Source: Lingula anatina
Taxonomy: Eukaryota; Animalia; Brachiopoda
NCBI GenBank assembly: GCA_051362555.1
Contig: CM120640.1
Location: 23,918,225-23,982,224 of the forward strand
DNA: 64,000 nt
Direction: 5' to 3'
The notes below the pieces were generated by a model, which was not told the origin of the DNA, did no database searches, and worked only from the letters and a program-made list of their open reading frames with translations. Shown here one piece after another: positions 22,323-63,300 of this stretch. Each line of letters begins with the position of its first letter. Positions within the stretch are counted from its first letter, which is position 1. The position numbers were made by a program, and so were the translations under genes.

Positions 22323-22470
22323 TTAATAATAACAAATATTTCAAAAATGCACAAGCATTCAACAGGAACATATTGACCTCTTTGTTACCTATCACTTAAA
22401 GATATACTCTATGGGTTTGATAATCCCCAAATGATTATTTTTGCCATCCATAGCTTCTTATAGCACCTTA

Positions 22471-22511
22471 AGAGTCTGGGGCAAACAGTTGATATCTTGC
22501 AGTACAATGTA
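22471..22511 (-). pseudogene. 41-bp relic copy of the MDN1 terminal coding exon
   Basis: 38/41 identical to 36435-36475; reads YIVLQDINCLPQT versus YIILRDINSLPQT in MDN1. Confidence 0.8.
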
Positions 22512-22633
22512 TACACCTTAAAAATGATTTAACCCCTTAAATAATTTTTTCTGGGGTGCACCTGATGTTGATACCTCTATGGGAGTTTGGTAAGATGGCC
22601 GCTGGTTATAATGACTAACCAGTTATTTTGAAT

Positions 22634-22998
22634 TAAATCAACCTTTATAAATCTAATTTAAGGTTGAACTCTAGTGCAGAGTGGGATAAATAAATAATGA
22701 GAATACGAGAAAATTGTGCATTTCCCTGAAAAAGTCCATTTTGACGGGTAAAATCCATTCATTTTAAATAAATGAGGCATTCAGCAATGCCACGATCAAT
22801 TGCACAGTATTCTTACTACCACATAAAACAATGTGCTTATGTGTTTAAACTTGGCAACTGTTAATTAAAGAATAAACCAGTCTAGCATTTAATTTTTTTT
22901 AATCTTGTCAATGTTCTGGACTGAAGCAGTGACTCAAAAATCATTCTCACCAATATATTCAAAATTTTGTGTTCCAAAAATTAACACGATATCTTCTT
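22634..22998. repeat. Diverged direct copy of the MDN1 3' UTR/downstream region (left copy)
   Basis: Colinear with 35912-36315 (taaatcaacc...gaatacgagaaaattg...ggcattcagcaatgccac...ctggactgaagcagtgactcaaaaatcattctca...gtgttccaaaaattaa), with scattered substitutions and two indels. Confidence 0.9.
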
Positions 22999-24090
22999 TT
23001 GTACGCCTAGTTCTAAGGACATAAGCCTACGGATGTATTCAATATATATTAGATGGGGTTGGGGTTTTTTTACCCCTCCTAAAATAAATTTTAAAACTCG
23101 GTCAGAACTTATAATTTGATATTAAATAACTTAATTATAAATTTATAATTGTATATATATATGCATTTAAAAAAGTCATCAAATCATGTTCCAAGACCTA
23201 AATATTTTCGTAATGTACGCCTTATGACACTTGATAACGTTCACGTGATTCAGATGAAGACAAAATGTGTCAAAAATATCTGAAATCGATATTGGGAAAG
23301 GGTTTAAGGGAATGATGTAAGGCACATGAGTAAACTGTGGTCACATAAAGAGATAATTCTAGTTTTTTATGTAATTATGCAAACATTTTCCGACTCATGC
23401 ATGCCTCAAAGTATGGGAAGTTTAAATATTTTAAATATCGAAGGCTTTAAAAATATCCTATCTGGATAATATTTACACGTTTTTAATACTAACAAAAATT
23501 ATACTGCTTTAAATAGGTATTACGACATGCACGTTTATTTTTAACACATTTTGTCTTCAACTTCGGTTGAATTTTTCACAGTGCCTGGTAATGAATGTTT
23601 GCTAATTGCTTTCTAAGAGAATGCAGTTTTTGCCGTTTAAAAAATTTGACTTTTCCCTGTCACCATTTCGTCCAGCTAATCGTGGATGTAACTGAATTAT
23701 AGATTCTATCAATGGCTAAAATATTACAAAAAAACATCAAACAACTGAAAATAATGACCCGCGACAAAAGACACCCCGAAAAGTTTCTTTTTTCAATTTT
23801 TAAAAACCGGGCGACACCTCGAAGGTGGCCGCATTATTGCGTTATTCAAAAAATTCTAGTTATTTTCGGAGACGTTAAAACGTCAGATTTAGTTGCTAGG
23901 CTGATGTAAGTAAAGTTTCACTTGGACAAACAATTCTTACGTTTAGTAATATAAAAAAGATAAATGGGCCTACACATATACTTGCATTATCTTTATAAAA
24001 AATCTTTTTCTGTTTCTGCTCAACTCATAACTCATGTTACTGGTGTGGGAGTACTGATAACCCGACGCCATGAAGGGAGACGTCAGTTGT

Positions 24091-24409
24091 TAATTATTAC
24101 CTAAATCAGTAGACGTTTTGAATATAGACATATACATTCACTCGTTTCGTCTGCCTTGCATTAGTAATATGATCCACTGCTGCTATCTTCCAGGCTATTA
24201 ATTATTACCTAAATCAGTAGACGTTTTGAATATAGACATATACATTCACTCGTTTCTTCTGCCTTGCATTAGTAATATGATCCACTGCTGCTATCTTCCA
24301 GGCTATTAATTATTACCTAAATCAGTAGACGTTTTGAATATAGACATATACATTCAGTCGTTTCTTCTGCCTGGCATAAGTAATATGATCCACTGCTTCT
24401 ATCTTCCAG
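24091..24409. repeat. 108-bp tandem repeat, 3 copies
   Basis: Units taattattacctaaatcagtagacg...gctatcttccag start at 24091, 24199 and 24307. Confidence 0.95.
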
Positions 24410-24890
24410 TTTTGTAAATCAATATAATTTGTCTTTTCATTTTTCAGAATAACAAGTCAGTTGATTACAAAATGTGTCTCAGAGTACTTGGGTGACTGAA
24501 CTCGACAATTCACTACAATCAGAACAACCATACTCCCTCAGGCTGCCTCAAAAATGCAGTCACCCTACGCCAAATTACATTATCCACATTTTGGATCAGT
24601 GTTCAAATACATGCACACTAAAGTAGCCTGCGAGAAGTTCACAGCTACCAGCTTAACGGACATCGTACCTATAAAAATTTTAGGGAGAAGGTATGTTGCT
24701 CAGAAATTTTCATCAAATTTGCCTGCACATTTCACAGACATTGCTTAGAACTTATTACTCTTATTATAAACAAACTGACAGGCAGAATAATCAAAATATA
24801 AAATATAAAAGAAAATGTATATGTTGATAAGATATTATTACCAACTTTGCGCATCACTATCAAAGGCCATCCCCTTTGAACAAGTTGACC

Positions 24891-24972
24891 ATTGGTGACA
24901 ACAAGAACGCCATCATGTGACTATACGTCAACAAAGGTATAAAAGCGCAAAATTTTAAAAGTGCGTTCACTC
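24891..24972 (+). promoter_or_regulatory. RNA polymerase II core promoter (reverse CCAAT, TATA box, initiator)
   Basis: ATTGG at 24891-24895, TATAAAAG at 24938-24945, and Inr-like TTCACTC with A at 24969, 31 nt after the TATA T. Followed by a CpG-rich stretch in otherwise CpG-poor DNA. Confidence 0.65.
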
Positions 24973-25328
24973 AACAGCGGACAGATCTAGAGCAACAGGA
25001 CGGATGCCATGTGCTGCGCCCTTTATCAAGCACAAAGGACACGGGAGTCGACTCCCATTTCTCCGAATCTTCTACTCATCCTACGTCAACGCATCGCTCT
25101 TCGACATATTGTTCCCTGCACACGCAGACGTCTAGACGGTGGATTCGGCGTTTCTCTTAGCTGGCCAGCTAAAATCTTCGCTTCTCCCCACGAGGAATCG
25201 TCGCTCGGTCATCTTCGCAGGATACTTCACCTTTTTGCTGTCGTGGGCTGGAATCGTAGTGTCATTGCATATTCCCATGCTTTCCAGGTTTCTTTTTATT
25301 ACAGGTCTAGGAAGCAGACTGCAAACTG

Positions 25329-26899
25329 GTGGGCGCCACCTGTGGGAATTCGACTACACTCCTTAAGGTATGTAATCTTTTTTTCTTTTTGGAAGGGGAG
25401 TTTGAGAAGTGAAAGAAATCTAATCTCGATTTTATTTCTGTTTACAGGACATGGAAGATGATGGGCGCCACCTGTGGGACTTCGACTACACTCCTTAAGG
25501 TATGTAATCTTTTTTTCTTTTTGGAAGGGGAGTTTGAGAAGTGAAAGAAATCTAATCTCGTTTTTATTTCTGTTTACAGGACATAGAAGATGATGGGCGC
25601 CACCTGTGGGACTTCGACTACACTCCTTAAGGTATGCAATCTTTTTTTCTTTTTGGAAGGGGAGTTTGAGAAATGGAAGAAATCTAATCTCGTTTTTATT
25701 TCTGTTTACAGGACATAGAAGATGATGGGCGCCACCTGTGGGACTTCGACTACACTCCTTAAGGTATGTAATCTTTTTTTCTTTTTGGAAGGGAAGTTTG
25801 AGAAATGAAAGAAATCTAATCTCGTTTTTATTTTTTGTTTACAGGACATAGAAGATGATGGGCGTCACCTGTGGGACTTCGACTACACTCCTTAAGGTAT
25901 GTAATCTTTTTTTCTTTTTGGAAGGGGAGTTTGAGAAATGAAAGAAATCTAATCTCGTTTTTATTTCTGTTTACAGGACAAAGAAGATGATGGGCGCTAC
26001 CTGTAGGACTTCGACTACACTCCTTAAGGTATGTAATCTTTTTTCATTTTGGAAGGGGAGTTTGAGAAATGAAAGAAATCTAATCTCGTTTTTATTTCTG
26101 TTTACAGGACATAGAAGATGATGGGCGCCACCTGTGGGACTTCGACTACACTCCTTAAGGTATGTAATCTTTTTTCTTTTTGGAAGGGGGGTTTGAGAAA
26201 TGAAAGAAATCTAATCTCGTTTTTATTTCTGTTTACAGGACATAGAAGATGATGGGCGCCATCTGTGGGACTTCGACTACACTCCTTAAGGTATGTAATC
26301 TTTTTTTCTTTTTGGAAGGGGAGTTTGAGAAATGAAAGAAATCTAATCTCGTTTTTATTTCTGTTTACAGGACAAAGAAGATGATGGGCGCTACCTGTAG
26401 GACTTCGACTACACTCCTTAAGGTATGTAATCTTTTTTCATTTTGGAAGGGGAGTTTGAGAAATGAAAGAAATCTAATCTCGTTTTTATTTCTGTTTACA
26501 GGACATAGAAGATGATGGGCGCCACCTGTGGGACTTCGACTACACTCCTTAAGGTATGTAATCTTTTTTCTTTTTGGAAGGGGGGTTTGAGAAATGAAAG
26601 AAATCTAATCTCGTTTTTATTTCTGTTTACAGGACATAGAAGATGATGGGCGCCATCTGTGGGACTTCGACTACACTCCTTAAGGTATGTAATATTTTTT
26701 TCTTTTTGGAAGGGGGGTTTGAGAAATGAAAGAAATCTAATCTCGTTTTTATTTCTGTTTACAGGACATAGAAGATGATGGGCGCCACCTGTGGGACTTC
26801 GACTACACTCCTTAAGGTATGTAATCTTTTTTCTTTTTGGAAGAGGGGTTTGAGAAATGAAAGAAATCTAATCTCGTTTTTATTTCTGTTTACAGGACA
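25329..26899 (+). repeat. ~132-bp tandem array (~12 units); each unit = 52-nt exon-like segment + ~80-nt intron-like segment
   Basis: Unit: gacatagaagatgatgggcgccacctgtgggacttcgactacactccttaag|gtatgt...aatctaatctcgtttttatttctgtttacag. Confidence 0.97.
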
Positions 26900-28272
26900 C
26901 AACTGCAAGGAGACACCCCTCATCTACACTTAAGCTACTTCGACCATCCCTTGGAGCCAGCGAGTCCTGCCATGGTCTGTCTACGAGGTGGCGGCACAGG
27001 GGAAGCGTCCAGCGAGACCTGCCATGGACTGTCTACGAGGTGGCGGCACAGGGGAAGCGTCCAGCGAGTCTTGCCATGGTCTGTCTACGAGGTGGCTGCA
27101 CCGGGGAAGCGTCCAGCGAGTCCTGTCATGGTCTGTCTATGAGGTGGCTGCACCGGGGAAGCGTCCAGCGAGTCCTGCCATGGTCTGTCTACGAGGTGGC
27201 TGCACTGATGAAGCGTCCAGCGAGTCCTGCCATGGTCTGTCTACGAGGTGGCTGCACTGGGGAAGCGTCCAGCGAGTCTTGTCATATGGTGTTTCAATGA
27301 GATGGAAACCACTTAAAGGTAAGCCTGACTGCAGAGTGCTGACATAGTATGAAAAGTCATTAATTCATTTTTCTTTCTGTTGACAGAACACAACTGCAAG
27401 GAGACACCCCTCATCTACACTTAAGCTACTTCGACCATCCCTTGGAGCCAGCGAGTCCTGCCATGGTCTGTCTACGAGGTGGCGGCACAGGGGAAGCGTC
27501 CAGCGAGTCCTGCCATGGTCTGTCTACGAGGTGGCTGCACTGGGGAAGCGTCCAGCGAGTCCTGTCATGGTCTGTCTACGAGGTGGCTGCACTGGGGAAG
27601 CGTCCAGCGAGTCTTGTCATATATTGTTCAATGAGATGGAAACCACTTAAAGGTAAGCCTGACTGCAGAGTGCTGACATAGTATGAAAAGTCATTAATTC
27701 ATTTTTCTTTCTGTTGACAGAACACAACTGCAAGGAGACGTCCCACATCTACACTTAAGCTACTTTGACCATTCCTTGGTGCCAGCGAGTCCTGCCATGG
27801 TCCGTCTCTTTGATGTGGCTGCACTAGGGAAGCGTCCAGCGAGTCCTGTCGTGGCCTGTCTACGAGGTGGCTGCATTAAGGAAGCGTCCGGCGAGTCCTG
27901 CCATGGTCTATCTGCGAGGTGGCTGCACTTGGGAAGCGTCCAGCGAGTCCTGCCATGGTCCGTCTACGAGGTGGCTGCACTGGGGAAGCGTCCAGCGAGT
28001 CCTGCCATGGTCCGTCTACGAGGTGGCTGCACTGGGGAAGCGTCCAGCGAGTCCTGCCATGGTCTGTCTACGAGGTGGCTGCACTAGGAAGCGTCCAGCG
28101 AGTCCTGTCCAACGTTTCATGGCAACTGCAAGGAGAAGAGGGCCACGTGCACACTTCCGATACATCCCTCAATCCTTGGTGCCAGTGAGTCCTGCCACGG
28201 TCTGTTGAGGAGGCTGCATTGGAGAAGCGTCTGAAGCATATGGTGTTTCACTGAGGCGGAAAAACCTGCAAG
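26896..28272 (+). repeat. 52-bp GC-rich minisatellite (~15 full copies) inside three duplicated exon/intron cassettes
   Basis: Unit ccagcgagtcctgccatggtctgtctacgaggtggctgcactggggaagcgt. Cassettes start at 26896, 27387 and 27721 and are separated by identical 68-nt introns (27319-27386, 27653-27720). A degenerate copy lies at ~28750-28865. Confidence 0.95.
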
Positions 28273-29572
28273 GTAACCCGTGTTACTGGCGAGAACAATA
28301 CACTAAAATTAATTTTTCAGCAGCAGTCTGTGCCATAAACTTTTCACCCTACTGGCCATTCAGTCCACCTTCTTTCCTAAAAACTAGATATAGATGTCTG
28401 AATCTTGATTCACTGGTTCGAATACAAAGTTCAATAGGACTAGACTGGATTGCATTAATATTTGTATTAACAAGACCTTGACATTTTTCTCGAATCATGA
28501 TGTAACAGTTACATTTAAAATAAATCAAAAGCTCTTTTTCATACTTATAGATAAAATCTAACAGCCATGTCACCAAATTGACACATTCTGGAAATCTACC
28601 GATTCCAACAATTTTTCTGGCTGCAGACTGCTTTTGATATACAATTTTTGAAAACTAATCAAATTTTCCTTTCTATTTACAGAACTCAATTAGGGCAATT
28701 CCTGATAAAGTCCCTCTTTTTTGAAAGAGGTGCAAGAAGAGGGTCACATTCAATCCTTGGTGCATGGTTGAGTCCTGCCATGGTCTGTATGTTAGGGGGC
28801 TGCATGGGGGAGCATCAGAAGCATATTGCGTTTCACAGAGATGGAAATCTATCAAGCCTTAAAAGGTACATATCACTCATGTTTTTTGGGGAAAACAAAA
28901 CACTTAAGTGATTTTTCATACCTTGAAAAACTAAAAACCGTTAGCCACATTAATTTGACAGCTCACATTCAGAAGGCAATGTCTTTTACCCATGACCCAC
29001 TCCTAGGATTAAGATATTTATGGTTAGTAGATTGGATTTGGGTGGGAGAAGTAAAGAGGGAAACTTTTGACTTATAATTTTTTATTTTGTAGTTGAGGCA
29101 GATAGCATTGGGGAGCGCCTGTCCTGATGACGGTCCATTTTAACAAGGTTGACAAGGCTAAAATGGAGAAAGCCATGTCAGCTATATCATATAGTGTTTC
29201 AAGAGCCCTTCAATAGTTGTGATTAGAGAGCATTCAAGGTAAGTTATGGGACAGGATAAGGGTAAATGAACTAGATTGTCATTCATTGTATAGATAATAC
29301 AAACCTTTTATCAGTGCAACTCCAACAAACTGAGCATTTTGTGCAAGGTCTTAGACAATTGTTTTAAGAATGTTTGGGACCTGTCACTCGGTGCAGGCAT
29401 TTGTTTTCCATTTACAATTTACTCTAGCAAATTCAGTGCTCATTTTTCACAGGTAAAAAGCTCTTTTAATTTGTCACAGATGTGGAAAAACCTTATCATT
29501 CATACAAAATATTTGACATGCCATTCGTCAACTTTCAGATCCTCAACAGTCTCGATATTCTGCAGAACGTTG

Positions 29573-29895
29573 TCAATGGTCGAGATTACTTGGAGCTACC
29601 GCCCCCACCACCCACCGCCACCAATGTGACTCTGGGGCGTGGTCAGTGGTCCAGATTACTTGGAGCTACCGCCCCCACCACCCACCACCAACAATGTGAC
29701 TCCGAGGCGTGGTCAGTGGTCCAGATTACTTGGAGCTACCGCCCCCACCACCCACCACCACCAATGTAACTCCAGGGCGTGGTTACTGGTCCAGATTACT
29801 TGGAGCTACCGCCCCCAACACCCACCACCAATGTGACTCCGGGACGTTGTCACTGGTCCAGAAATTGTATACTAGCAGCTACCACCCCCACCTCC
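29573..29895 (+). repeat. 70-bp C-rich tandem repeat, ~4.5 copies
   Basis: Units ccagattacttggagctaccgcccccaccacccaccacc...gcgtggtcagtggt at 29581, 29651, 29721, 29791, partial at ~29858. Confidence 0.95.
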
Positions 29896-29939
29896 AGTGC
29901 TGTGGTTGTGGTAATAAAAGGCCACCGTAGAAGTGAGTA

Positions 29940-30300: not shown

Positions 30301-33300
30301 TTTAAATGCTGTTAGTATTCCTTTTCCTTCGTTAAAACTAATTTGTGCAATACCCCATTGTGACATTAAGTCTGAAGGTCGCCAGTGGCATGTCAAAATA
30401 TTTCGCTTGAATGTTATTTCCAAGTTTGTGACAAAAGTGCTTTTGATATTTATTTCCCATTAAACTGCTGAAACTTTAAAAACACATTTCATATACAAAT
30501 GGTTGACTTTTATTACATTTTGAAGTAATAATTTAAATTTGCAGGCTAACAAAAGTGGTGGATTCTAAAAATGAAGATTGCAACTACCAAACCTCCAGAT
30601 GAAACACTTCTTCAGGATTGAGGGATCTTTATACAGATAACTTTGTAAGTTATTGGGGATCAACAACTTAAGAAAAGTGGTTCTGAATTTTTAAGTATTA
30701 TTATTGGTGTATTATGGCATTTCTTATTATTGACAGTGATCAAAAACTATATCCTATGTAAACAAACAGTAGAATTAGAAGTAGCACAGACAGTCAACAA
30801 TTTAACATGTAGGCTAACATTACAATATTCAATATAGCAACATCTTTTCTTACTTTTTTGTCAAATGTTTGAAATAATTTATTTTTTGAAGACTGCTGTC
30901 TACTTACTCTAAAAAGTTAATATATATATTTCAATAAAGGAAGCATATTTCACTGTACATTTGGAAATAACGCTCTGATCATTTTAAGAACCAAGCTTTT
31001 CATTAATGTTAACGGTGTGTAAATACCAGTGATATACTTTCTTTGTTGCAGTTACTGCAAGCTTTCGATATAGCTTTTCATACTTTTGAGTAAAAGTTGG
31101 ATTTCATTTGTAGGCTACGAATTGGAAGTTTTCCAATAATTACGCCTGCATGATGTCGGATAACGTCGACCCAAGACCAAATGTCCAAGATGTTAAACAC
31201 TGTACAGCGTTAGCAAGGAGCCCTGTGGACACTTTCATCGATGCTCGGACATCCCACGAGTTTTGGTGTTGAAGGACACGGCTTGTTCTGCAAACAAATA
31301 TAGAGAATGTGGAATGGTAATGAAGGCAATATACAGTACTGAATACAGTCTAATAATGTCTTTTAGATGCTGAGAATATTTGGGGTTCATGGGTCACAAA
31401 CATGTCAAGGTGAAATTGCATCAAATTTCATTTGTATTTTATGCCTTATGCAGTGAACCATTTTATTTCAATAACAGAAGAGAAAACTGAGGTTCAAGAT
31501 AATTCTTCATTCCATACAAGATCAATTGCATAAGATGTGTGCTTCTGTAGGAAAAGTCTACCTCTACAGTTGCTATAATTATTATATTAATAAATTTGAA
31601 TATAGTTGCTTTATCCACATTCTGAATGCAGATAGTTTTTTGCTCACAAAAACATTCCCACCACTTGTGGTCGTCTGTGTTTTGTTTCAATCTGAGATGG
31701 TCATTTTTCAAATTTGTGCTTTTGATGATGTGGAGTTGTTTGTCAGTATGGCATTTGAAAAGGTCTTAACCTGCACACTAACCTTACTAACAAACCCTCA
31801 CATCTTTGTAAAATCTGACTTCATGTAAACGCTTTTACATGAAGAGATTTTACATTGATAGATTGTGCAAAATCTGTAATGAAATATTTTACGTGTGAGA
31901 AAATATTTCATTATATTTTTTGTACAGTCTGCTCTTCTTGAGAGATGCTGTCATCTCTCAAGATAGAGATCACATTACTAATATTTAGATTTTCTCAAGT
32001 GTTATAGTTGACAAATACATCCACTTCATCACATATGCACCTTTTCTCCGGATCAAAAAAATTCAGATTGAAATTTATATGGGCGGTCATACAGTGTAAT
32101 GTGAGATCCGAAATATTTTGAAGCAAGCTTGTATCATGCAGGTAGTTGCGATTTCAGTGCAAAGTTACATTTTAGAAACCTGGTATTTTAAGTCGAATTA
32201 TATATCAAAGTTTAGTTGAAATCATTGATATTTCCGAGTTATAATCATATTACTTGTATCTGTTTGCATTTTATCATAAAGAGAACTATAATCAAGTTTT
32301 GAAAGATGCTTGCAGTTGTAAAATGATTAACTTTATTTATGGTTTTAATTCTCCAAGATAAAGTCAAAATGATTCTGTTTAATTGTTGTCTCTTGTTAGT
32401 TTTTTATTGGCTTCAGTGCCTTTTTTTGTAAGAATTACTTTAATAAGTTTTTATGCTTCACCTCGTGTATAGTATATATAGAGAATAGTTAGTCAAGACA
32501 AAGGTTATTCCGTCACACAATGCTGTCTAAAACGGGACGATTCTTGAACTGTACGCAGCGCCGTGCCAATAGAAACCGATTTCGTCATGTTATTCGGGCG
32601 TGGGCACTTTCCCGGCATTCCCCACGAAGGGTTTAGACGGGTTTTTCCCCACGGCCCGAGAGCATCTGGTACCAGTTTCCGACCACAAGACCTGCATTAT
32701 CGGACGCTAGATGAAGACGATGGAAAATCTTAGAACTTTTGATAATACTGCTATGTATTAATTCATTGCGTTTACGTAGTTCATTACTTTTTAAATCAAC
32801 TGTAAATATTCAAAATTGTACATAATAGTTGAATAAAAAATATTCTATAATTTTCTTTCTTTCTTTTTTTTTTTTGTAAAAAAAAGTGGTCGTGTACAGA
32901 TCGCTAAAAAAAGCGAGACTTGCAAATCAATTTAAATGGACTCGCATGTATGCTCGTTTAATCATTAGTAGAAATTGTCCTCTTTCGCCTCTCACTTAAA
33001 CTTTTACAATCTCGTCACTATTTCTGTCACTCCAATTTCTTCCATACCTTAACTTTTTTGTTTAAAAGGAAAAAAATCACACATTTACTTCGGAGAGAAG
33101 AATCAATGTTAGGCTATAATAGTTTTTGAAGGGAAACCACGCATGCCTCTCCCCTAATTGTGATTGACAGTATCCTTGCATCTTGTTGACATGATATCAA
33201 CTTGAAGTTTACTAACCTGCCCCAGGCCGTCATTGAACGACCTTGTCCGCGTACACTGGAACACTTATCCACAATATACACTGATCCACAATGCACTTTG

Positions 33301-34689
33301 AAGAAACTTTCATTTCATATCTTGTTTCACAGATGATGACAATAAAGATAAAGTGATAATACATTTTTGCTATTAATATTTATGTGGAGTTGTCCAGTTT
33401 TTTTGGTTGCTTTGATTTTGCAAGGAGAAAGGATAACGAAAAGATAATATGCTTGTTGTGATTTTTAAATTAAAATGTTTTAGTTACTATTTATAATTGC
33501 TTAAATATTTTAACATTTCTTTGATTTGCTTGAAAGAAGATGGCATGCAGCGACCCATAGTTACCCTATTCACAGTTTAGAACTGGCATTATATGGTTTA
33601 AAAAAACTTTCGCGTGTGTGTGCGTGTGGGGAGGGGGAGGTAGAGAGGTAGGATGCCTCACATTTACCAAGAAGTTATAACTTCTTGCATTTACCAACAT
33701 CGTGGTGAGAGTATTAGCGAGGCAGAAAGTGTTTCAGACAGCACATCTGATTAATTATCTATTGTTTATTATACATTTTTTATTCTCATATTTATATATT
33801 TTGTATAAAATAACTCTTGCATTGCTTTCTATACAAGGTCTTTATCACATACATTATCATATATGAAGTACTTTTTAGGTGATTTATTTTCATTGTCATA
33901 CAGATTATTGGCCATTACTGTTATTATGTGTACTATATTTTCATTTAGTTTTTACTTTTACCTTATCATTATTTTGGTACAATTTATACCTTGTTTATTG
34001 TATGGTTAATGGAAACATTCCAAATAGGTGTTTAGAGTGCTTTAACACATGATTTTTTTTGTGTTACTGTAACAGCCTTTTGCTTTTAGCATTTTTTACT
34101 ATTCTATAGGGCTTTGTACAAAATGTGTATTGGTTAACAATATAATTATTTAGACCAACAAATGCTGGTCTGTGAGAAAAGTTATATAAAATTAATAAAT
34201 ACGCTGATACAAGTTTTTCTAGTTACAAGACTTTTATACAGTTAAGTGAAATCAGTGATGGTTTCTGTGAGAAAATATTGTAATACACCACCCCTCCCTC
34301 TCTTCTCTAGGATTAAAAAAACAAACAAACAAACAAAAAAAACAATTACTTTCCCACATCGCAATTATTTAACATATAACTCTTTTTTTCACCACAAGAC
34401 AAGTTTCATTAGAAAAAATTATTTATGCAATATATATGCTGAAATAACTTGCTCTGATTCATATTAGACTGCATACAACAGGTAAATATGGTTACCTCCA
34501 CCCCCACATATAACTCATTAAAAATAAGATGCCTCAAACGATGCCTCAAACCAAATAATATTTTTTCACACAACAAATATATGCATAAACTTTATAATAG
34601 CAAATTATTAAAAAAATTTGACGATGGGCACTTTGCCAATGGTTATCTGCACTCATCCTTAAATTTTTCACATATCGACATTTTCAAGG

Positions 34690-35860
34690 TGTGACTTTGA
34701 ACTTCCATGGGTTTGAAGACCTTTGCTAGTCTGAATATCCATGATAATTTTATTTCATTATTAAAATTGATGGTCATTATGCATTATGTAATATTGCAAC
34801 GAAAATGAAGAAACCTCTATTTTGGACACTGCTTTTATAGTGACCATTAAAGAAAAACCATGTTACTTACTCTTCTTAAAACTTACAGGAAAGAAACACA
34901 GGTCTAAAATGCAGCCTGTGTTGGAAAAGCAATCTAATTGGTTTCTTTTTCTGTTGTACGTTTGTGAAGTTGTTATCTTTCATATATTGGCATTTTCAAT
35001 GTGGGACTTGGAACTCCCATGGTCATGAAGCCCAGTGGTAATCAAATTTTCTAAATGACCACGTTATTAATAAAAATAAATGGTGGTAATTATAGTTAAT
35101 CATTATGTAATATTGCATCAAAATTGCCAAAAAGCCAACTTCGTGCACTGTCATCACAAACGTTATGATAAAAAGCAAACTGTGTTAGTTATTATTTTTT
35201 TTAGCTTAAAAGAATGATTCTTAGGATTGACATACAGCTCAAATAAGAAAACCAGCTCTATTGGATTATCATTTTTTATTGAATTAACGCAACTTTTTGT
35301 GAAATTCTCATTTTTCTCATTCTGGCATTTCTAAGTATGAACTTGAACTCTCATGGGCCTGCTTTTACTTTCATCGGTATTACCTGTTTTGCATAATTTA
35401 AATTTGATGTTGACTTTGCAGTTAAGCGTAATATATTATTGCATCAGAATTGACAGCATCCTATTTTGTGCATTATTACTTTCTGCTTTTTTTAAGATGT
35501 GACTTATTGGTCTGAAAGACCTTTGAGAGGGTCAGTCTGTAAATTTCCCTTGGGTATCACTAAGCTAAGTTCAGAGTTATAAAGTCATTTGCCTAATTAA
35601 TAGGTTATTAAATGAGATTACATAAAGCACAGTTGTTGATATTTCCCTGTAAACTCCCAAAGATTAAGCCAGTCTGCTAGATTAATAATAAGGAAGCAGT
35701 GATAATTATGCAGGTAAATTTTGCAATATCTCTGGGTCCACTCCTGTTATTGACCATGTTACCTGTTGTACATGATTAAAATTCAGTGTTGACTGACAGT
35801 GCTATTATAAGCATTATTTATTATTGCATCAAAATTGACAAAATGACCTATTTTGCATCT
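34690..35860. repeat. Old, highly degenerate tandem repeat (~315-335-bp period)
   Basis: Recurring ttgaact(t/c)(c/t)catgg at ~34697, ~35008 and ~35343, and attatgtaatattgca..aaaat-like motifs at ~34783, ~35102, ~35430 and ~35815. Confidence 0.5.
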
Positions 35861-35911
35861 TTATTTTCTGTTTTTTGTCTGTACATTTGACAGCTTTGCT
35901 GCCTTGTTAAC

Positions 35912-36315
35912 TAAATCAACCTTCATAAATCTAATTTAAGGTTGGACTCAAGTGCAGAGAGGGATAAATAAATGATTGGGGAATACGAGAAAATTGCGCA
36001 TTTCCCCGAAAAATTTTGGTGGGTAAAATCCATTAATTTAAAATATATGAGGCATTCAGCAATGCCACAATCAATTGCACAGTATTCATATTACCACATA
36101 AAACAATGTTTCCAAAATTACTGTCAGCTGTGTTTCAACACAATCATGCGTTTTAACTTGGCAATTGTTTATTAAAGAATAAAGCAGTCTAGCAATTTTA
36201 AATCTTGTCAATAATCTGGACTGAAGCAGTGACTCAAAAATCATTCTCAGCAATATTTCAATAAAAAGACATACTGAAAGATGTGTTCCAAAAATTAATA
36301 CGATATATTCTTCTT
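35912..36315. repeat. MDN1 3' UTR/downstream region, source (right) copy of the duplication
   Basis: Colinear with 22634-22998; retains the minus-strand AATAAA at 36168-36173. Confidence 0.9.
36168..36173 (-). terminator. Candidate MDN1 polyadenylation signal
   Basis: TTTATT on + (AATAAA on -), ~210 nt downstream of the MDN1 stop. Confidence 0.5.
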
Positions 36316-36382
36316 CCTGTCCCATCCCTCCAGGAGTCAAAACCACATAATATATAGTATGTCCTTTGCCAGTGACCCGTCC

Positions 36383-39300
36383 TCAGCTGTCCCCAGCAGT
36401 GACCAGTTCAAACCACTGTCTTAAGGCATCACTCAGAGTCTGGGGCAAAGAGTTGATATCTCGCAGTATAATGTAGAATGGGAAAGGGAAATGGTCCATG
36501 TAAGATTTGATTTCAGGAATCTGAAAATACAATACTCTAATTTCACAAATCTGCAGATAAACATTTCTCAATTTAGTAATACTCAATATAGGAAACATTT
36601 AACTTGGGCCTTCTTTCAAATTAATGATATTCAAGTAGTTTCTTAATAAGGTGAATGGATATGCTGATATTCTAATTTCAACAACGTGAAGTATGTTTCA
36701 CAACTGAAAAAAAAACTTTTGTTTGCTATTTAATCTTTGAGCCTTGCCTGTCCAGGTCCTTTAAACACTGGCACTTTTATGTCCAGTATAGAGTCCTTAT
36801 TGAGAGGATTATCTATGACCACAAAGACCACAAACACATTGGCCTCCCTGGCCCTCCTGACTGCCTGCTTGACAACCTCCATACCCTCCAGGAACAGGCC
36901 ACGCCCATCAGAGACCACCAGCAGGAGCTGGGAGGTCTCTATGTTAGTGACCACACCCTGCTGTCTGGACCTGGCACTCAGCATTATACCTGTGGCTTGG
37001 TCTAAGAGCTGAAATTGGGGACAGATGATTCATTGCTTTAAAGTACCAACCACTGTGAACACATGAAATTTCAAATTTCTTCCAAAACTGAAATCCATGA
37101 ACACTAAACTTAGGTACAAGCTTTATATGAGAATGTATCAGTATTAGTTTTGTATTATATTATGAGTGAGCAATGAAGATAACATTTCTGGTTTAGGTTC
37201 TGAAAATATGTTTTAAATTAGCAGAAAATTATGAAGAAAAAGTAAAAGTTTCAGATATTTTAATATAAACTTACCTGTGCAATCTTGGTCTTCTTCTGCT
37301 CAAATGTAAACTGCTGCAGGATCCTGGCACCTGATTGGTTGGAAAACTGCTCTTGGAAAGGATGCAGGACCTTCACCACCTCACCAAAACTACAAGAAAA
37401 ATGAATAAATAAAACATCTGTTTCAAATTCTTTACAAAAAGTTTAACAAAAAAAATATTTGTTAACTTACAGGAAATTTTGTTTTTAAAAGCTAATACAA
37501 TTTTAAGCAAATATTACATATATTTTTACAGCATTAATTTCACCAAAATGGGATTTATTTTTATTTTTTGTTGTTCAATGAGACATTTTTAAAGAAAAAC
37601 TCAAATTTACCTGCTAACTGCCAGTTCTCCTGCCTCCAGGGTTGTAAGGGCATTAGCAATAACAGCTAAAGACTCAAAGGCTAGCTGTAGTAATAAAACA
37701 AAACAATGTGAAGATCTGGCAAAACCACAGGTTTTTCTTGAAGATAATTGAGCATCGTAAATTAAGCATTTTTTGTGTGAAGAAAATAAAAGCAGTCTTT
37801 TTAAATAACATGATCAATAAAAGCCTTGGAGTAAACTATTTGTTTTAAAGACTGTGCTACTGGTAACACCCAGCTTATCATACCTGTTTGGAGTGGTTGT
37901 CTGTCATACTTGAAGAGTCGTCCACTGCTAACATGATCTGGTAGTTACGTTTGCTGGGTTTGGTTCTCCTTAGCCAGATCTTGTCTTTCCTGAACTGACT
38001 GGCAATGTACGGGATCACCTTGCGCATGTTGAGTCGCTTGCCTGTACGATAGTCTCCCCTGAAAGTATCAAAAATATTCTTTCTGATCAACTGTTACCAT
38101 ATAAAATTTCCTTAACCTCTCACTCACCATCTCTAAAAAATATTTCTTTGGACACTCTTACTGGTCAACAGAAGTGTGAAGTAGAGCTACTGATACTTAC
38201 TTGAGTTTTGTAGCTTGAGATGGTTCCAGAACCAGCCTCAGCTGTTCACACAGTTCCTGGGACAAACTGCTGGTCAGCATTTCATATCTCTGCCAGGCCT
38301 CCTGTGCCTGCTGCTCCTGCAGGACCAAAATAAAATATATAAAGTAATATGGTTTGAAGGTGACTAAAGAATAGGAATACCAATCTTTTTCCCCCTCCCT
38401 AATTTTCTGCTTCTCCTCACCATTTCAATTTTTTTTTAATAATTTAACAGCCACTAAGACCAATTTATTGGATTGAAACTTACCTCTTCTCTTGAGCCTG
38501 GTTTAGGGTGGCTCCATGTGGTCAACTGCTGTTCAAGTTCTCTTCTTAAACTTTCCAGATCTGCTTCCTGGGCCTGAAAAAACAGAAATATCACTGAAGG
38601 TAATGGACCCCCAATAAAGTGCACTTTTTAGACTGTAATAATTCTGAAAGTTATCAAAATCTTCTACAACGAGTGAAAGGATAAACTGGCAATGAAAATA
38701 TTAAAAAAAATTTCAAACATGGATGTTAATGCAGAACTGCTGGTTACCGTTTCTAAATGCAAATGCTCCAAGGCTGTGTGAATGGAAGACTCCATGGGTC
38801 GCTGAACTGTGGCAGTTTCAATTTTTTCTCCACTGGTCTCCATTGTCTGACCTTTTTCATCCACATCCATTCCTTCCTCATTTTCTCTCTTATCATTGCC
38901 TCCATCTGGTTTCCTCAATTTAGCAGATGATAGCTTGTCAACCTTTTTGTCTTCCTCCTAAAATTGATTTAATAAAAAAAAGGGAATGCAAAGGAGAGTA
39001 AATTGGACATACTAAAATGATTACACAGAAAAGCTGACACTTGGCAAGAATTAAAAACATAAGTATTTTTGGTTGAAAAATTGGTATTTGTATTTCTCCC
39101 TCATTGAAAAATAAAACTTACATGCATTCCAAACCTGAATAAATGCTAACTTTGAAATTATTTCATCAGTCAGGACAACTAACCTGATGATCAGTATCAT
39201 CCAAGGGTTTCATTTCATCATCTTCATTTACTTTTTCTTCTCCTTCCTCCTCATCAAGCTGAGGAATGGGTTGCTGCTCCAGCTGTTCAGCAGTAGCAGC

Positions 39301-57300: not shown

Positions 57301-60300
57301 GATTTGTTCAAAGCTTTTCAATCTGAGATAATGAAGGTATGGAGCCTATAGTTCAATCACTGGCCTAACAATAACAAATTGTAAGTCCAGCTGCAATTTA
57401 AAGGTCAATCAAGGAGGTTAAATCCTGCTCTGAGGAAAACTATCAAGTGAAAGATTTTACACATTGGGTCTTGTGAACACTGCTATTGCTGGGTATCTGT
57501 TCCAGGGGATTTCCAGCATTTGACAAACTCTTGGAAATGACTAACAACCTGGTTTTAGTTTCTGTAGATATGCAAATTCATTGCCAACTTTTCTTTATTC
57601 ACTCACAGATATGGAAATTGGACAACAGCAATCACATTGTGGTTATGTGAGGAAATGTGGGTGAACCATGCCCTGACCATTTCTTCAGTTCCTTTAATTT
57701 GGTAATGTTTTGATTCGATGAAAATAACCCTGTCAAATCTTATATGCTCTTACAACTGAGTCACAAAAGATGTAGGTGGAAGAATCCAGGGTATAGATGA
57801 AGACAGAACATGTAGGAGCCTTTTGTCACTAGAGGATCAGAGAGGCGATACCGCCTCCGAATATTGTACCACCAGCTGGAGCAAGCGCATTCGTATAGAC
57901 CCCCACATACACAAAATAAGGGGTGCAGCCACCAGTCTTGTGCTTGACAAGCTGTAAAAATGCAATCAACAAGAATTTTCAAAATATGCAAAAAATATAT
58001 ATAACTAAAAATGGTGCAATCAAAGTTAAGTTCATTGTAAGGTAGGTCAAAGGTCAATTTCAAGGTCACAGTAAATTGCCAGTATATGACTTCCTATCCA
58101 ACTTCAATAGTAACTATGGACCTATCTCTGCCAGTTTTGGAGATAAAAGGGAAGCAAAATTTGCAAAGTTCAGTTCATGGTGAAAAGTAGGTCAAAGGTC
58201 AATTTCAAGGTCACAGTAAGATTGCCAGTATATGACTTCCTATTCAACTTCAATAGTAACTATGGACCTATCTCTGCCAGTTTTGGAGATAAAAGGGAAG
58301 CAAAATTTGCAAAGTTCAGTTCATGGTGAAAAGTAGGTCAAAGGTCAATTTCAAGGTCACATTTAGATTGCCAGTATATGACTTCCTATTCAACTTCAAT
58401 AGTAACTATGGACCTATCTCTGCCAGTTTTGGAGATAAAAGGGAAGCAAAATTTGCAAAGTTCAATTCATGATGAAAATTAGGTCAAAGGTCAATTTCAA
58501 GGTCACAGTAAAATTGCCAGTATATGACTTCCTATGCAAGTTCAATAGTAACTATGGACCTATCTCTGCCAGTTTTGGAGATAAAAGGGAAGCAAATTTT
58601 GCAAAGTTCAGTTCAAGGTGAAAAGTAGGTCAAAGGTCAATTTCAAGGTCACAGTAAAATTGCCAGTATATGACTTCCTATTCAAGTTCAATAGTAACTA
58701 TGGACCTATCTCTGCCAGTTTTGGAGATAAAAGGGAAGCAAAATTTGCAAAGTTCAGTTCATGGTGATAAGTAGGTCAAAGGTCAATTTCAAGGTCACAG
58801 TAAGATTGCCAGTATATGACTTCCTATTCAACTTCAATAGTAACTATGGACCTATCTCTGCCAGTTTTGGAGATAAAAGGGAAGCAAAATTTGCAAAGTT
58901 CAGTTCATGGTGAAAAGTAGGTCAAAGGTCAATTTCAAGGTCACATTTAGATTGCCAGTATATGACTTCCTATTCAACTTCAATAGTAACTATGGACCTA
59001 TCTCTGCCAGTTTTGGAGATAAAAGGGAAGCAAAATTTGCAAAGTTCAGTTCATGGTGAAAAGAAGGTCAAAGGTCAATTTCAAGGTCACAGTAAAATTG
59101 CCAGTATATGACTTCCTATGCAAGTTCAATAGTAACTATGGACCTATCTCTGCCAGTTTTGGAGATAAAAGGGAAGCAAATTTTGCAAAGTTCAGTTCAA
59201 GGTGAAAAGTAGGTCAAAGGTCAATTTCAAGGTCACAGTAAAATTGCCAGTATATGACTTCCTATTTAAGTTCAATAGTAACTATGGACCTATCTCTGCC
59301 AGTTTTGGAGATAAAAGGGAAGCAAAATTTGCAAAGTTCAGTTCATGGTGATAAGTAGGTCAAAGGTCAATTTCAAGGTCACAGTAAGATTGCCAGTATA
59401 TGACTTCCTATTCAACTTCAATAGTAACTATGGACCTATCTCTGCCAGTTTTGGAGATAAAAGGGAAGCAAAATTTGCAAAGTTCAGTTCATGGTGAAAA
59501 GTAGGTCAAAGGTCAATGTCAAGGCCACAGTAAGATTGCCAGTATATGACTTCCTATTCAACTTCAATAGTAACTATGGACCTATCTCTGCCAGTTTTGG
59601 AGATATAAGGGACTAAATGTTATAATTTTGGAGTTACCATAATGTGCCATAAATTTCCTACAGAAAAAATTAATTAAAATAAAGAAAAGGTCATTTTGGT
59701 CAAAGTTCTTGAAATGGGAGGTTCTCTGAAGTTGCAGAAGTTTAAATTTGATAAAATAATGTCATTTTTGACCACAAGTTGTCTGCTTTGCCAAGCATTA
59801 TGTTTTATTTTTCCGGAGTTCAAAATTTATTATCCATTACCGTACTGCACATTTTTACGGAAGCCGACTGGTGCCATATGTTGAAAAAAAAAATTATCTC
59901 GAAATTTCGAGATAGCATTTTTTTTGTTCAAATTTCAAAATACTATCTCGAAATTTCGAGATAAATTTTTTTGCTCAAATATCAAAATGCTATCTCGAAA
60001 TTTCGAGATAATTTTTTTTTTGTTCAAATTTCAAAATGCTATCTCGAAATTTCGAGATAAAAATTTTTTTTGTTCAAATTTCAAAATAGTATCTCGAAAT
60101 TTCGAGATAATTTTTTTTTCTACATATGGCACCAGTCGGCTTCCGTACATTTTCCTTTCACCACCAATATGTACTTTCTGATACAGCGTAACTCGAAAAC
60201 CGTATGGAATACAAAAAAACCGAGACCACCTCCAGTGTTGGGCTTTACATGCTCTACAAAATGCAAAAAAGAATGGGTCTCTAGCATTAACGGTTCCCGA

Positions 60301-63300
60301 ACTAGAGACAGTTTTCAGTTTCAGTATCTTATGGCCGCTACTCCTGTGAAAATGCACCGATTGACCCCAAATTCACGGAGATGAAAGATGACCTGAAGGG
60401 TAACACTTTCCAATAATATTATTGGTTAAGTCTGTGTGGCGTCTGAATAACAGGGCAAAAAAATTTTTTTCGTAAAAAATTTCATTTTTTTGAAAATTTT
60501 GACCCATTTGACCTTGAAGTAAAGGTCAAAGGTCAAATCCGAGGGTATATTTGAAATCTACACATATGACTTTTGGAAAGCCGTCTATAGAAATTTTTCC
60601 CGTAACTCCTTCTGTAGGGTAGATAATTAGCATTTAATTTTGCCATTTTTAGACAAGGGTGCATTGCAATGAGTGCCACACCCAGACCCCAATACCGACA
60701 AAGCCCAAATTTTACGTGGAACGAGTTGAGATTATAGGTGACCTAAATCCATGAGATGGGTACGGGGGCCCTTACCGTCCCAGGAGGAGAAGCGGTAACG
60801 GTAACATGGCGGCGGAGCCGGCGGAACGGACCGGACGGGACCGAAAATGGTGCAATCAAAACTACTAAAGATACCCACGCTAACGCTGGTGGTAAATTTT
60901 TTTGTTCAAATTTCAAAATAGTATCTCGAAATTTCGAGATAATTTTTTTTTCTACATATGGCACCAGTGGGCTTCCGTACATTTTCCTTTCACCACCAAT
61001 ATGTACTTTTTGATACAGCGTAACTCGAAAACCGTATGGAATACAAAAAAAACGAGACCACCTCCAGTGTTGGGCTTTACATGCTCTACAAAATGCAAAA
61101 AAGAATGGGTCTCTAGCATTAACGGTTCCCGAATTAGAGACAGTTTTCAGTTTCGGTATCTTATGGCCGCTACTCCTGTGAAAATGCACCGATTGACCCC
61201 AAATTCACGGAGATGAAAGATGACCTGAAGGGTAACACTTTCCAATAATATTATTGGTTAAGTCTGTGTGGTGTCTGAATAACAGGGCAAAAAATTTTTT
61301 TTTCGTAAAAAATTTCATTTTTTTGAAAATTTTGGCCCATTTGACCTTGAAGTAAAGGTCAAAGGTCAAATCCGAGGGTATATTTGAAATCTACACATAT
61401 GACTTTTGGAAAGCCGTCTGTAGAAATTTTTCCCGTAACTCCTTCCGTAGGGTAGATAATTAGCATTTAATTTTGCCATTTTTGGACAAGGGTGCATTGC
61501 AATGAGTGCCACACCCAGACCCCAATACCGACAAAGCCCAAATTTTACGTGGAACGAGTTGAGATTATAGGTGACCTAAATCCATGAGATGGGTATGGGG
61601 GGCCTTACCGTCTAGGAGGAGAAGCGGTAACGGTAGCCGTCCGGCGGAGCCGGCGGAACGATCCGGACGAGACCGAAACCATGTGTACCGCCAGCGCTAA
61701 CGCTGGTGGTACAATTATCATTTAGACAAAAGGAGGTGTTTCTGAAGGAGACAGGGTAGTTGTAATTTGCTACAAAGAAGCAGAGGAATGAGCTGATTAA
61801 TTACAGAGACACTTGTTTCAGAAAATTGGGATACTCACGACCTGTCTAATTTCTGTCTCTTCAATATCAGCTCCAGCCCCTGACATCTGTATCAATCTCT
61901 GTACCATGTGATCAAAACTGGTCATCTTTTGCTTCATCAACTGCAGACACATTTGACTTCTTAATTCCAAGAACAAGTCATCCTGAAAAATTAATGATAT
62001 GCCTAAAACATTAAACCAAAATACTGGCCCTTATTCATGACTCAGCAACAGTGAAAAGAAACCTCCAAAGATAAACATTTTTCAGATGGTTAACTTAAAT
62101 GCACTACCATTTATTACCTTTTGGCCTTCACGTAGAAACAGGGCATATGGTGCAATATGGTTGGCTTCCGCTGGTAAAAATGTCAGGCAATATTCTATGA
62201 AGGTTTGTATTTCTCCTTTGTTCCCTCCAGTGGTCAAATTTAACAATATCTTCTGCTCCTGTAGGAGTTCAAAATACAAACACACTGGCCACATTGCTAT
62301 CTTGGTGAGAAGACTGTCAGCTTTGAATGCCAATGGTTCCAGCGGTGTGTCCAATTCCATAGAGCTGGAGTGTGGAGTATATAAACTGTGCTTTGTCAAT
62401 TCCACTTCCAGCTCTGCAATGGCTTTATTGAAAGTTTCTGAAAGAGAAATTGATGACTTTTGAGTATGTTTAATGTCTTAAAGCTGTTAATTTTTTTCCT
62501 GACCACTCATCTTTGCATTACCCTATCCATGGCAAAAATTGACCAAAAAAGAAAACATTTCCAACACAATAAAATAAATCACCAGTCTTCACAAATACTT
62601 CAGCTATTATTTCAGAACAATCAATTCATCAATTCCTTGCATAAATCCCATTGCCAAGCAGATACCTAAATAGATAATAATATTTAGTTTTTTCTATATT
62701 GCACATTTATTCATTCATGTCAGTAATTCCATAGCTTTGGTGCACATATTTTGAATGCTCGATAACCATAAAATTTGTAAACTTTAGTCTTAAAACAGAA
62801 TGTTCTAAAAGTAAATGATTGAAAGTGGAACTTACCCAAATCAGCATCCTCGGATTGGCAATAAAGATCAGACATAAGCTGCACCAACTTATGCCTCACA
62901 GGTTCTCCATACTGGCACAGATAACAGGCAATCCTCTTCTCTTTTTTTCCAACATCTCCAAGTTGCACTCCTCCTGTGTTTAAACTGAGTGCTCTACTTA
63001 TGGCCTCCACAGACAACACAGCCCTTGCTGCTTCTTCAGATTTAAAAGGTCTAGGGCAGCCAAAGACCTTACTGATCTTCTGCTGGACTTTGCTGGCCTG
63101 GTTGTCCATGCTTAGGATGTCATCTAGCCTTCCTGTCACAGCCTTTAATTCTGCTGGAATACTGAAAAACCAAAATACAGCCAACTTGTTGAAATTGAGA
63201 ATGCTGCTTTGTACAAATTATACAATCATATTTTTGTGATACATCTAGTCAATTCAGAAGGAAGAAAGTCATTACTGTTTTTTGTGTGTTTGTTTTGTTT

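Follow-up and report, generated by a model that had tools for sequence, protein, structure and literature searches.

Non-coding RNAs built from repeats are, to our knowledge, known almost only from mammals and flies. The local repeat of Firre (the repeating RNA domain, RRD) forms 7 of 13 human and 11 of 23 mouse exons and serves as a signal for nuclear localisation (PMC4820808), SF1 binds the tandem UACUAAC repeats of Gomafu (MIAT), which delay splicing in vitro (PMC3116199), several unrelated tandem-repeat blocks have been proposed to functionalise long non-coding RNAs (lncRNAs) such as Xist and Rsx (PMC6316617), and U1 motifs retain reporter RNA on chromatin in mammalian cells (10.1101/310433). 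Here, a repeat-built transcription unit of the brachiopod Lingula anatina was analyzed in a window of 64,000 nucleotides (nt) (assembly GCA_051362555.1, contig CM120640.1, positions 23,918,225 to 23,982,224). The unit occupies positions 24891 to 29932 of the window, on its + strand, between the converging 3' ends of a VPS13A/C-like gene (+) and the Midasin gene (-). The locus is real, transcribed and undescribed; the anatomy given in a preliminary description made from the sequence alone holds, and the mature RNA predicted there mostly does not.

The locus departs from the known repeat RNAs in that each of its repeats comprises an entire mini-intron together with an exon, and in that the introns stay in. 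Firre is likewise a multi-exon RNA in which one repeated unit supplies many exons, with repeats mostly confined to the locus and fast divergence. The Firre RRD is, however, 156 nt long, binds hnRNPU and causes nuclear retention, whereas the Lingula unit is known from sequence and RNA reads, its newest unit measures 52 + 80 nt, its introns are mostly retained and it has paralog loci; no sequence homology is claimed. Tandem branch-point-like motifs, together with donors and acceptors, would be present in the Lingula RNA where introns are kept, which recalls Gomafu, but the Gomafu repeats are exonic 7-mers conserved to chicken and the Lingula repeats are whole, partly functional introns for which factor binding is predicted. 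Several unrelated tandem-repeat blocks within one RNA are shared with Xist and Rsx; this likeness is one of repeat layout alone, the Lingula unit having no stable hairpins, a length of about 4 kb and multiple loci. A poly(A) RNA with unspliced 5' splice sites resembles the U1-retained chromatin RNAs, which come from mammalian cells only, and differs from them in that the retained introns are 12 near-identical tandem copies.

The reading we favour, held tentatively and a little short of even confidence, is a Lingula-specific family of local-repeat non-coding RNAs, likely kept nuclear by retained mini-introns. Repeated tandem duplication of exon plus intron units has built a polyadenylated, spliced RNA gene, from whose transcript three unique introns are removed and in which twelve 80-nt introns are mostly kept, leaving many donor-branch-acceptor sets per RNA. 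Splice signals and short modules would then be offered in many copies to RNA-binding proteins; the twelve unspliced sets may recruit U1/U2 factors and so keep the RNA at chromatin, and the tandem branch points may gather splicing factors in a Gomafu-like manner. Nonsense-mediated decay acts on transcripts with a stop upstream of spliced junctions, and since three or more such junctions follow the stop of any exon-1 frame, an exported copy would be a target of this pathway.

Transcription was assessed in six of nine raw RNA runs deposited under the same species label (X3, X6 and X9 were left out; run labels are distinct from the RefSeq isoforms X1 and X2 mentioned below). From these poly(A) and oligo-dT runs, 6 to 26% of the reads of each were examined against two targets, 24410-25499 and 28044-29640, in which one unit stood for each array. 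The first target received 216 reads from run X1, 279 from X2, 44 from X7 and 2 from X4, and the second 532 from X2, 50 from X7, 56 from X8 and 4 from X5. Transcription of the + strand was found in four of the six runs, the remaining two (X4 and X5) giving the 2 and 4 reads, and the level was about 8 to 12 in units resembling reads per kilobase per million (RPKM) in X1 and X2, 1 to 2 in X7 and X8, and near zero in X4 and X5. Runs X1 and X2 are stranded, with the first mate on the - strand for nearly all reads, which places the RNA on the + strand. An absence of transcripts from every tissue, named beforehand as the outcome that would speak against the unit, was not what was found: it is transcribed from the predicted promoter and strand, and its predicted unique junctions are used.

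The core promoter (24891-24972, + strand) carries a reverse CCAAT box (ATTGG, 24891-24895), a motif resembling the cAMP response element (TACGTCA), the TATA element TATAAAAG at 24938-24945 and an initiator with a predicted start A at 24969, all at the positions first described. On both strands of the window, 39 TATAAAWR sites occur; three have an initiator at the right distance, and this promoter alone also has a CCAAT box. The predicted TATA promoter is in use. Read depth rose from 2-4 before 24965 to 8-19 across exon 1 in runs X1 and X2, in line with a start near 24969; the sharpness of that start was not borne out, as upstream read-through is present and no sharp start site was among the listed features. 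The first exon had been singled out as CpG rich, which proved not to be special to it: the observed-to-expected CpG ratio is 0.98 in exon 1, 0.86 in the 1.9 kb upstream, 1.49 at 32.5-33 kb and 0.5-1.5 over the whole intergenic block around the unit, against 0.16-0.18 in the flanking genes. Just 5' of the promoter (24410-24740), poly(A) reads of the - strand were also recorded (depth 14 in run X1 and 6 in run X2 at 24410-24483); heading toward a 108-base-pair (bp) array, they likely represent divergent transcription. Read ends left loose at 24498-24501 suggest that the alleles sampled carry an insertion.

The RNA is about 3.9 kb long, made up of a 2.9-kb spliced model and 956 nt of retained introns, and is thus a long, polyadenylated and strand-specific transcript of the kind looked for in local-repeat scaffold lncRNAs. 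One-strand, sample-restricted, polyadenylated and poorly spliced transcription is also a trait of precursors of PIWI-interacting RNAs (piRNAs), and a single-strand precursor of this type, its modules yielding many copies of the same small RNAs, would account for it. Such a precursor is nevertheless very unlikely. Antisense reads over the unit numbered 0-4 against 100-190 sense reads, there is no hairpin, no transposon protein fragments were found, and a search for structured RNA with 4227 Rfam families gave 0 matches at the gathering score.

The gene model consists of 18 segments separated by 17 introns with GT..AG ends; the 79-81-nt class has twelve members and the 68-nt class two, and the other three introns measure 410, 227 and 300 nt. 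Every internal segment is bounded by GT..AG splice ends and the three repeat families (132-, 52- and 70-bp arrays) are real, as first described. Exon 1 (24969-25367, + strand like all segments that follow) contains a 119-codon open frame from 25009 that is broken or has lost its start in some reads. The 132-bp array (25368-26895; 11.9 copies, 96% matches) alternates eleven 52-nt exons with twelve introns of 79-81 nt, which carry a consensus donor, a CTAAT resembling a branch site and an acceptor and are mostly kept in poly(A) RNA. It is followed by cassette exon 1 (26896-27318), which has a head, six 52-bp modules and a tail; its module is transcribed on the + strand, and reads pass into its head from a retained intron. 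The two 68-nt introns (27319-27386 and 27653-27720), predicted from sequence, flank cassette exon 2 (27387-27652) with its three modules. In cassette exon 3 (27721-28272), six modules are joined to an older one-module cassette (28123-28272) whose donor at 28272 is used. The 52-bp minisatellite is accordingly present as three fresh cassettes with 6, 3 and 6 full units and as older single units at 28183 and 28770.

Farther 3', a decayed cassette exon (28683-28865) is 78% like 28162-28262, and the oldest cassette-derived exon (29093-29238) is 61-70% like the cassettes (z about 8). The last predicted exon (29539-29932) holds a C-rich 70-bp array of 4.3 copies and an AATAAA at 29913, just after which the RNA may end. 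Single-unit depths in run X2 were 113-190 for the 132-bp, 193 for the 52-bp and 166-174 for the 70-bp repeat versus 13-29 in unique exons, so that the modules are multicopy in the mature RNA, another feature of local-repeat scaffold lncRNAs. The 70-bp unit (29556-29640) was about 6-7 times as deep in run X2 as the upstream exon and included unit variants foreign to the window, and its depth was 0 in runs X7 and X8, though both carry the 52-bp module; different alleles, different paralogs or an earlier 3' end may lie behind this gap. At the other end of the unit, the tail of exon 1 (25305-25331) is 82% alike over 28 nt to the beginning of the 68-nt intron, and 9 reads of run X2 depart from the window at 25323-25328 and continue in sequence similar to that intron. 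A consensus acceptor is also present at 25304, with no use seen in the reads. The end of exon 1 may be a decayed intron fused to a 52-nt exon through a deletion.

The unique introns and the array introns behaved very differently in the reads. All three predicted unique junctions were used, 28272^28683 by 19, 28865^29093 by 14 and 29238^29539 by 28 reads of run X2, with 2 reads of run X5 at the junctions of exon 29093-29238. These 3' introns (227-410 nt) were 78-99% spliced in run X2, with a depth of 0-6 in the introns against 13-29 in the exons. Within the 80-nt intron (position 25429), depth was 140, 185 and 20 in runs X1, X2 and X7 against 130, 190 and 29 within the exon (25453), and spliced exon-exon joins of the array numbered 5, 18 and 8 against 44, 63 and 2 unspliced unit joins. 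From these counts the 79-81-nt introns were about 3-5% (X1), 9-12% (X2) and 29-36% (X7) spliced, rough estimates given that joins and depth were counted differently and one array unit served as target. Array depth was about 12 times that of exon 1, matching 12 retained copies. The main RNA carries the intact 132-nt array of splice signals.

The proposed junction 25367^25448 does join exon 1 to a 52-nt exon, though in no more than 1 read of run X1 and 3 of run X2, and the mature RNA foreseen as a concatemer of 52-nt exons is a minority form. Weak detection is not the cause, since 189 back-joins at the 52-bp module were found in run X2 and 52-nt concatemers are therefore detectable. Acceptors lying 7 or 10 nt inside the 52-nt exon, which would give in-frame exons of 45 or 42 nt, were considered as alternatives and set aside, as the listed joins begin at the annotated acceptor. 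A short-intron read-through in the paralog model P0039 was not counted either; it consists of a 6-residue match only (z 3.6).

Against the U1 consensus, the donors of retained introns match at 8 of 11 positions and those of spliced introns at 6-8 of 11, and introns of the flanking genes measure 138-382 nt in 7 of the 9 that could be placed. Retained and spliced introns thus have similar donors and different lengths, which makes small size a plain candidate cause, and from this small sample the poor splicing of the array may be ascribed to introns far shorter than the genome norm. Donor-like motifs reach 3.0 per kb in the unit versus 0.6-0.7 in the flanking genes. The spread between runs, with about 3-12% spliced in two and about 30% in another, could reflect regulated splicing. 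On that view spliceosomal factors would gather in the nucleus on an RNA acting as a tunable sponge or scaffold, with an array of whole, functional mini-introns as its working unit, left unspliced to a regulated degree, and with its copy number setting the dose; we regard this specific form as rather improbable.

Judging by its repeat layers, the unit grew in rounds by tandem duplication of whole exon plus intron units, a process that had been proposed and that is older than was first recognized. Cassettes 1-3 are mutually 89-95% alike, and older copies are found at 28123-28272 and 28683-28865 (78%) and at 29093-29238 (61-70%), with their splice sites still used. Homology at the 3' end (z 5.7-10.8) unites the 80-, 68- and 410-nt introns and does not extend to those of 227 and 300 nt; an inverted-repeat pair at 28305-28649, resembling a small transposon insertion, may account for a 68-nt-type intron reaching 410 nt. 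Module and intron variants carried by the reads were foreign to the window (0 of 11 motifs present), and modules vary between samples. The arrays would enlarge by unequal crossing-over.

The same record could be left by a neutral process, in which a young promoter-bearing locus sits in a duplication-prone unmethylated block, minisatellites chance to hold splice sites and the RNA is functionless. In the alignable parts of old copies, intron and exon have diverged equally (78-85% ungapped), which gives no sign of stronger protection of exons, and this agrees with such a by-product, as do the variation among reads and samples, the lack of the 70-bp unit in runs X7 and X8, the lack of a fold, the lack of a relative outside Lingula, and the nearby arrays and old duplications (108 bp x3, the Midasin 3' copy). 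A by-product would not be expected to have a canonical promoter and about 10 RPKM-like units in two runs, to use splice sites efficiently in cassette copies only 61-78% alike, or to preserve the cassette layout in paralogs at about 50% amino-acid identity. We consider the neutral explanation somewhat unlikely, though it deserves to be taken seriously.

Several observations weigh against a functional non-coding RNA of the Lingula-specific family, the reading favoured here. Retention may be a mere side effect of small introns, without function, and the array splicing estimates may pool alleles and paralogs. No stable fold was found, z never falling below -0.87 in the 17 segments folded, and no hairpin. 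Among exon-1 reads, as many as 14 letters per 150 depart from the window, which fits weak constraint; since the heterozygosity of Lingula is reported to be 1.6% (PMC4595640) and the read differences are well over that, the reads probably pool alleles and paralogs. The other points concern the coding potential of exon 1. Its 119-codon frame is longer than in 98.9% of 2000 shuffles (1.1% reach it), unique-region variants are synonymous in 12 of 23 cases in the ATG frame alone of six (P 0.008), two in-frame deletions separate RefSeq isoform X2 from X1, and most frame-breaking changes lie in diverged, paralog-like reads. These and the following tallies of synonymous variants apply to the variants listed, 40 of 60.

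The last four points would be expected if exon 1 encoded a de novo microprotein of 132-153 residues known only from Lingula, with the arrays as an oversized, partly spliced 3' untranslated region, retention gating export or decay, and broken reads stemming from pseudogenised paralogs. The absence of a long open reading frame (ORF), claimed earlier, does not stand: the spliced model holds a 153-residue ORF that runs from 25009 through exon 1 into the first 52-nt exons, as well as a 148-residue repeat ORF. The first of these is annotated by RefSeq, whose model of the locus is protein-coding. The frame is intact to about codon 95 in the window and in RefSeq isoforms X1 and X2, near-identical reads preserve the first ~95 codons with 4 of 6 variants synonymous, and 12 of 25 exon-1 variants are synonymous overall (P 0.01-0.03).

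The microprotein is nonetheless unlikely. An upstream ATG opens a 43-residue frame first, and the window and the RefSeq allele use different frames for the C-terminus. Reads that lack the start number 3/6, 2/2 and 2/7; deletions of 1 nt (10/17 and 5/9 reads) and of 7 nt (6/16 and 3/15) shorten the frame to 39-47 codons, and all 5 reads of run X7 carry a stop. The synonymous share falls to 8 of 19 (P 0.10) once four indel-adjacent variants are dropped. No Pfam domain and no credible homolog outside Lingula were found for the protein, three or more spliced junctions lie beyond its stop, and its Atlas structure model is poor (predicted template modelling [TM] score 0.16, predicted local distance difference test 0.46); the Protein Atlas gave no usable feature match, and no structure match reached TM 0.5 by query.

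Their frames show the arrays to be non-coding. The common variant of the 52-nt exon has a stop in all three frames, and the 52-nt period, not being a multiple of 3, cycles through the three frames both in the unit and in the paralog model P0038, which therefore shares the period. This leaves the decayed repeat-protein gene, offered earlier as the alternative, weak for the arrays. Together with the interior of a non-autonomous mobile element, to which copies on at least two other scaffolds and the position of the block between old direct repeats could be attributed, it is the least probable of the explanations, close to negligible. No domain, transposon domains included, passed on the 11 frames compared with Pfam, no terminal repeats bound the unit among the repeat families shown, and viral contigs held no relative (4 pattern matches, none confirmed). 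A FERM_M score on the reverse-strand translation of the 132-bp array (25.1 versus a cut-off of 23.8 bits) was rejected because it adds up over the repeats while 0 single stretches pass by themselves, because its frame is broken by changes in T-run length and because that strand is untranscribed.

The exon-1 frame corresponds to RefSeq LOC106172600 of L. anatina, annotated as an uncharacterized protein, and isoform X1 differs from the window once in the first 95 residues. The exon 1 of its two "isoforms" (P0027 and P0029) differs by substitutions plus deletions, and the substitutions indicate that the RefSeq assembly holds two exon-1 copies, either a tandem duplicate or an unmerged haplotype. 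Two diverged L. anatina paralog models with the module, LOC106164805 and LOC106153014 (52% and 48% amino-acid identity), were found among 26 candidates, and the copies sit on at least two other scaffolds. If the locus is only a transcribed minisatellite, it still cautions that these three RefSeq models of "uncharacterized proteins" are doubtful.

Translated search, animal genome collections aside, matched only L. anatina itself, and no credible homolog outside Lingula was present among 1.84 billion representatives (2 matches, one an unrelated repeat). The candidate P0028 (E 1e-7, 35%) was rejected as the translation of an unrelated repeat that finds no counterpart in the window by tblastn, the single passing stretch among 233 from metagenome contigs (L001, an 18-residue match) was taken as chance, and a search for longer proteins with repeat alignment scored 0 of 7996, which is weak evidence. 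Four identifiers of LOC106172600 and its paralogs retrieved no literature, no description of a Lingula lncRNA was found in a literature search whose coverage excluded subscription journals, and five identifiers were absent from one supplement of a lophotrochozoan shell proteomics paper (PMC13425148).

The flanking genes were placed by sequence matches. The VPS13A/C-like gene ends near 20.8 kb (matches to PDB sequences of VPS13C and VPS13A) and Midasin near 36.4 kb (26 matches among 187 candidates, the best 76% to clam midasin). A partial, rearranged copy of the Midasin 3' end (22424-22998, no strand assigned) adjoins the VPS13 3' end and matches 36390-36475 and 35904-36312 at 74-77%; its source is the last exon and 3' flank (35904-36475), and its two pieces stand in swapped order relative to the gene. 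By virtue of this copy the unit sits in a block flanked by two old direct repeats.

Further repeats surround the unit. The 108-bp array (24090-24409; x3, 97%), the fourth of the region, has two pyrimidine-rich AG sites in each unit. Inverted-repeat pairs resembling small transposon insertions also occur at 23252-23562 and 31807-31930. A second promoter-like, CpG-rich patch (32540-32760, ratio 1.49) has CCAAT and GC boxes without a following long ORF, and two sites in it resemble NF-kB motifs. Just beyond the Midasin 3' end, a degenerate family (34663-35876) consists of four copies, 70-75% alike and about 310-400 bp apart, and the Midasin introns contain a 146-bp array of 10.9 copies (58021-59612) and a duplicated block with a 49-bp array (59885-61216).

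The origin of repeats in such RNAs is usually hidden by age. In this locus the layers are visible, from units with 96% matches through cassettes 89-95% alike to decayed exons at 61-78%. The locus also offers a natural series of introns, 80 versus 227-410 nt long and no different in the quality of their consensus sites, that are kept or removed in one RNA, and the effects of intron size and of the dose of tandem splice sites on nuclear retention are thereby directly testable. If the reading as a sponge or scaffold is true, this would be the first functional lncRNA to be described from a brachiopod.

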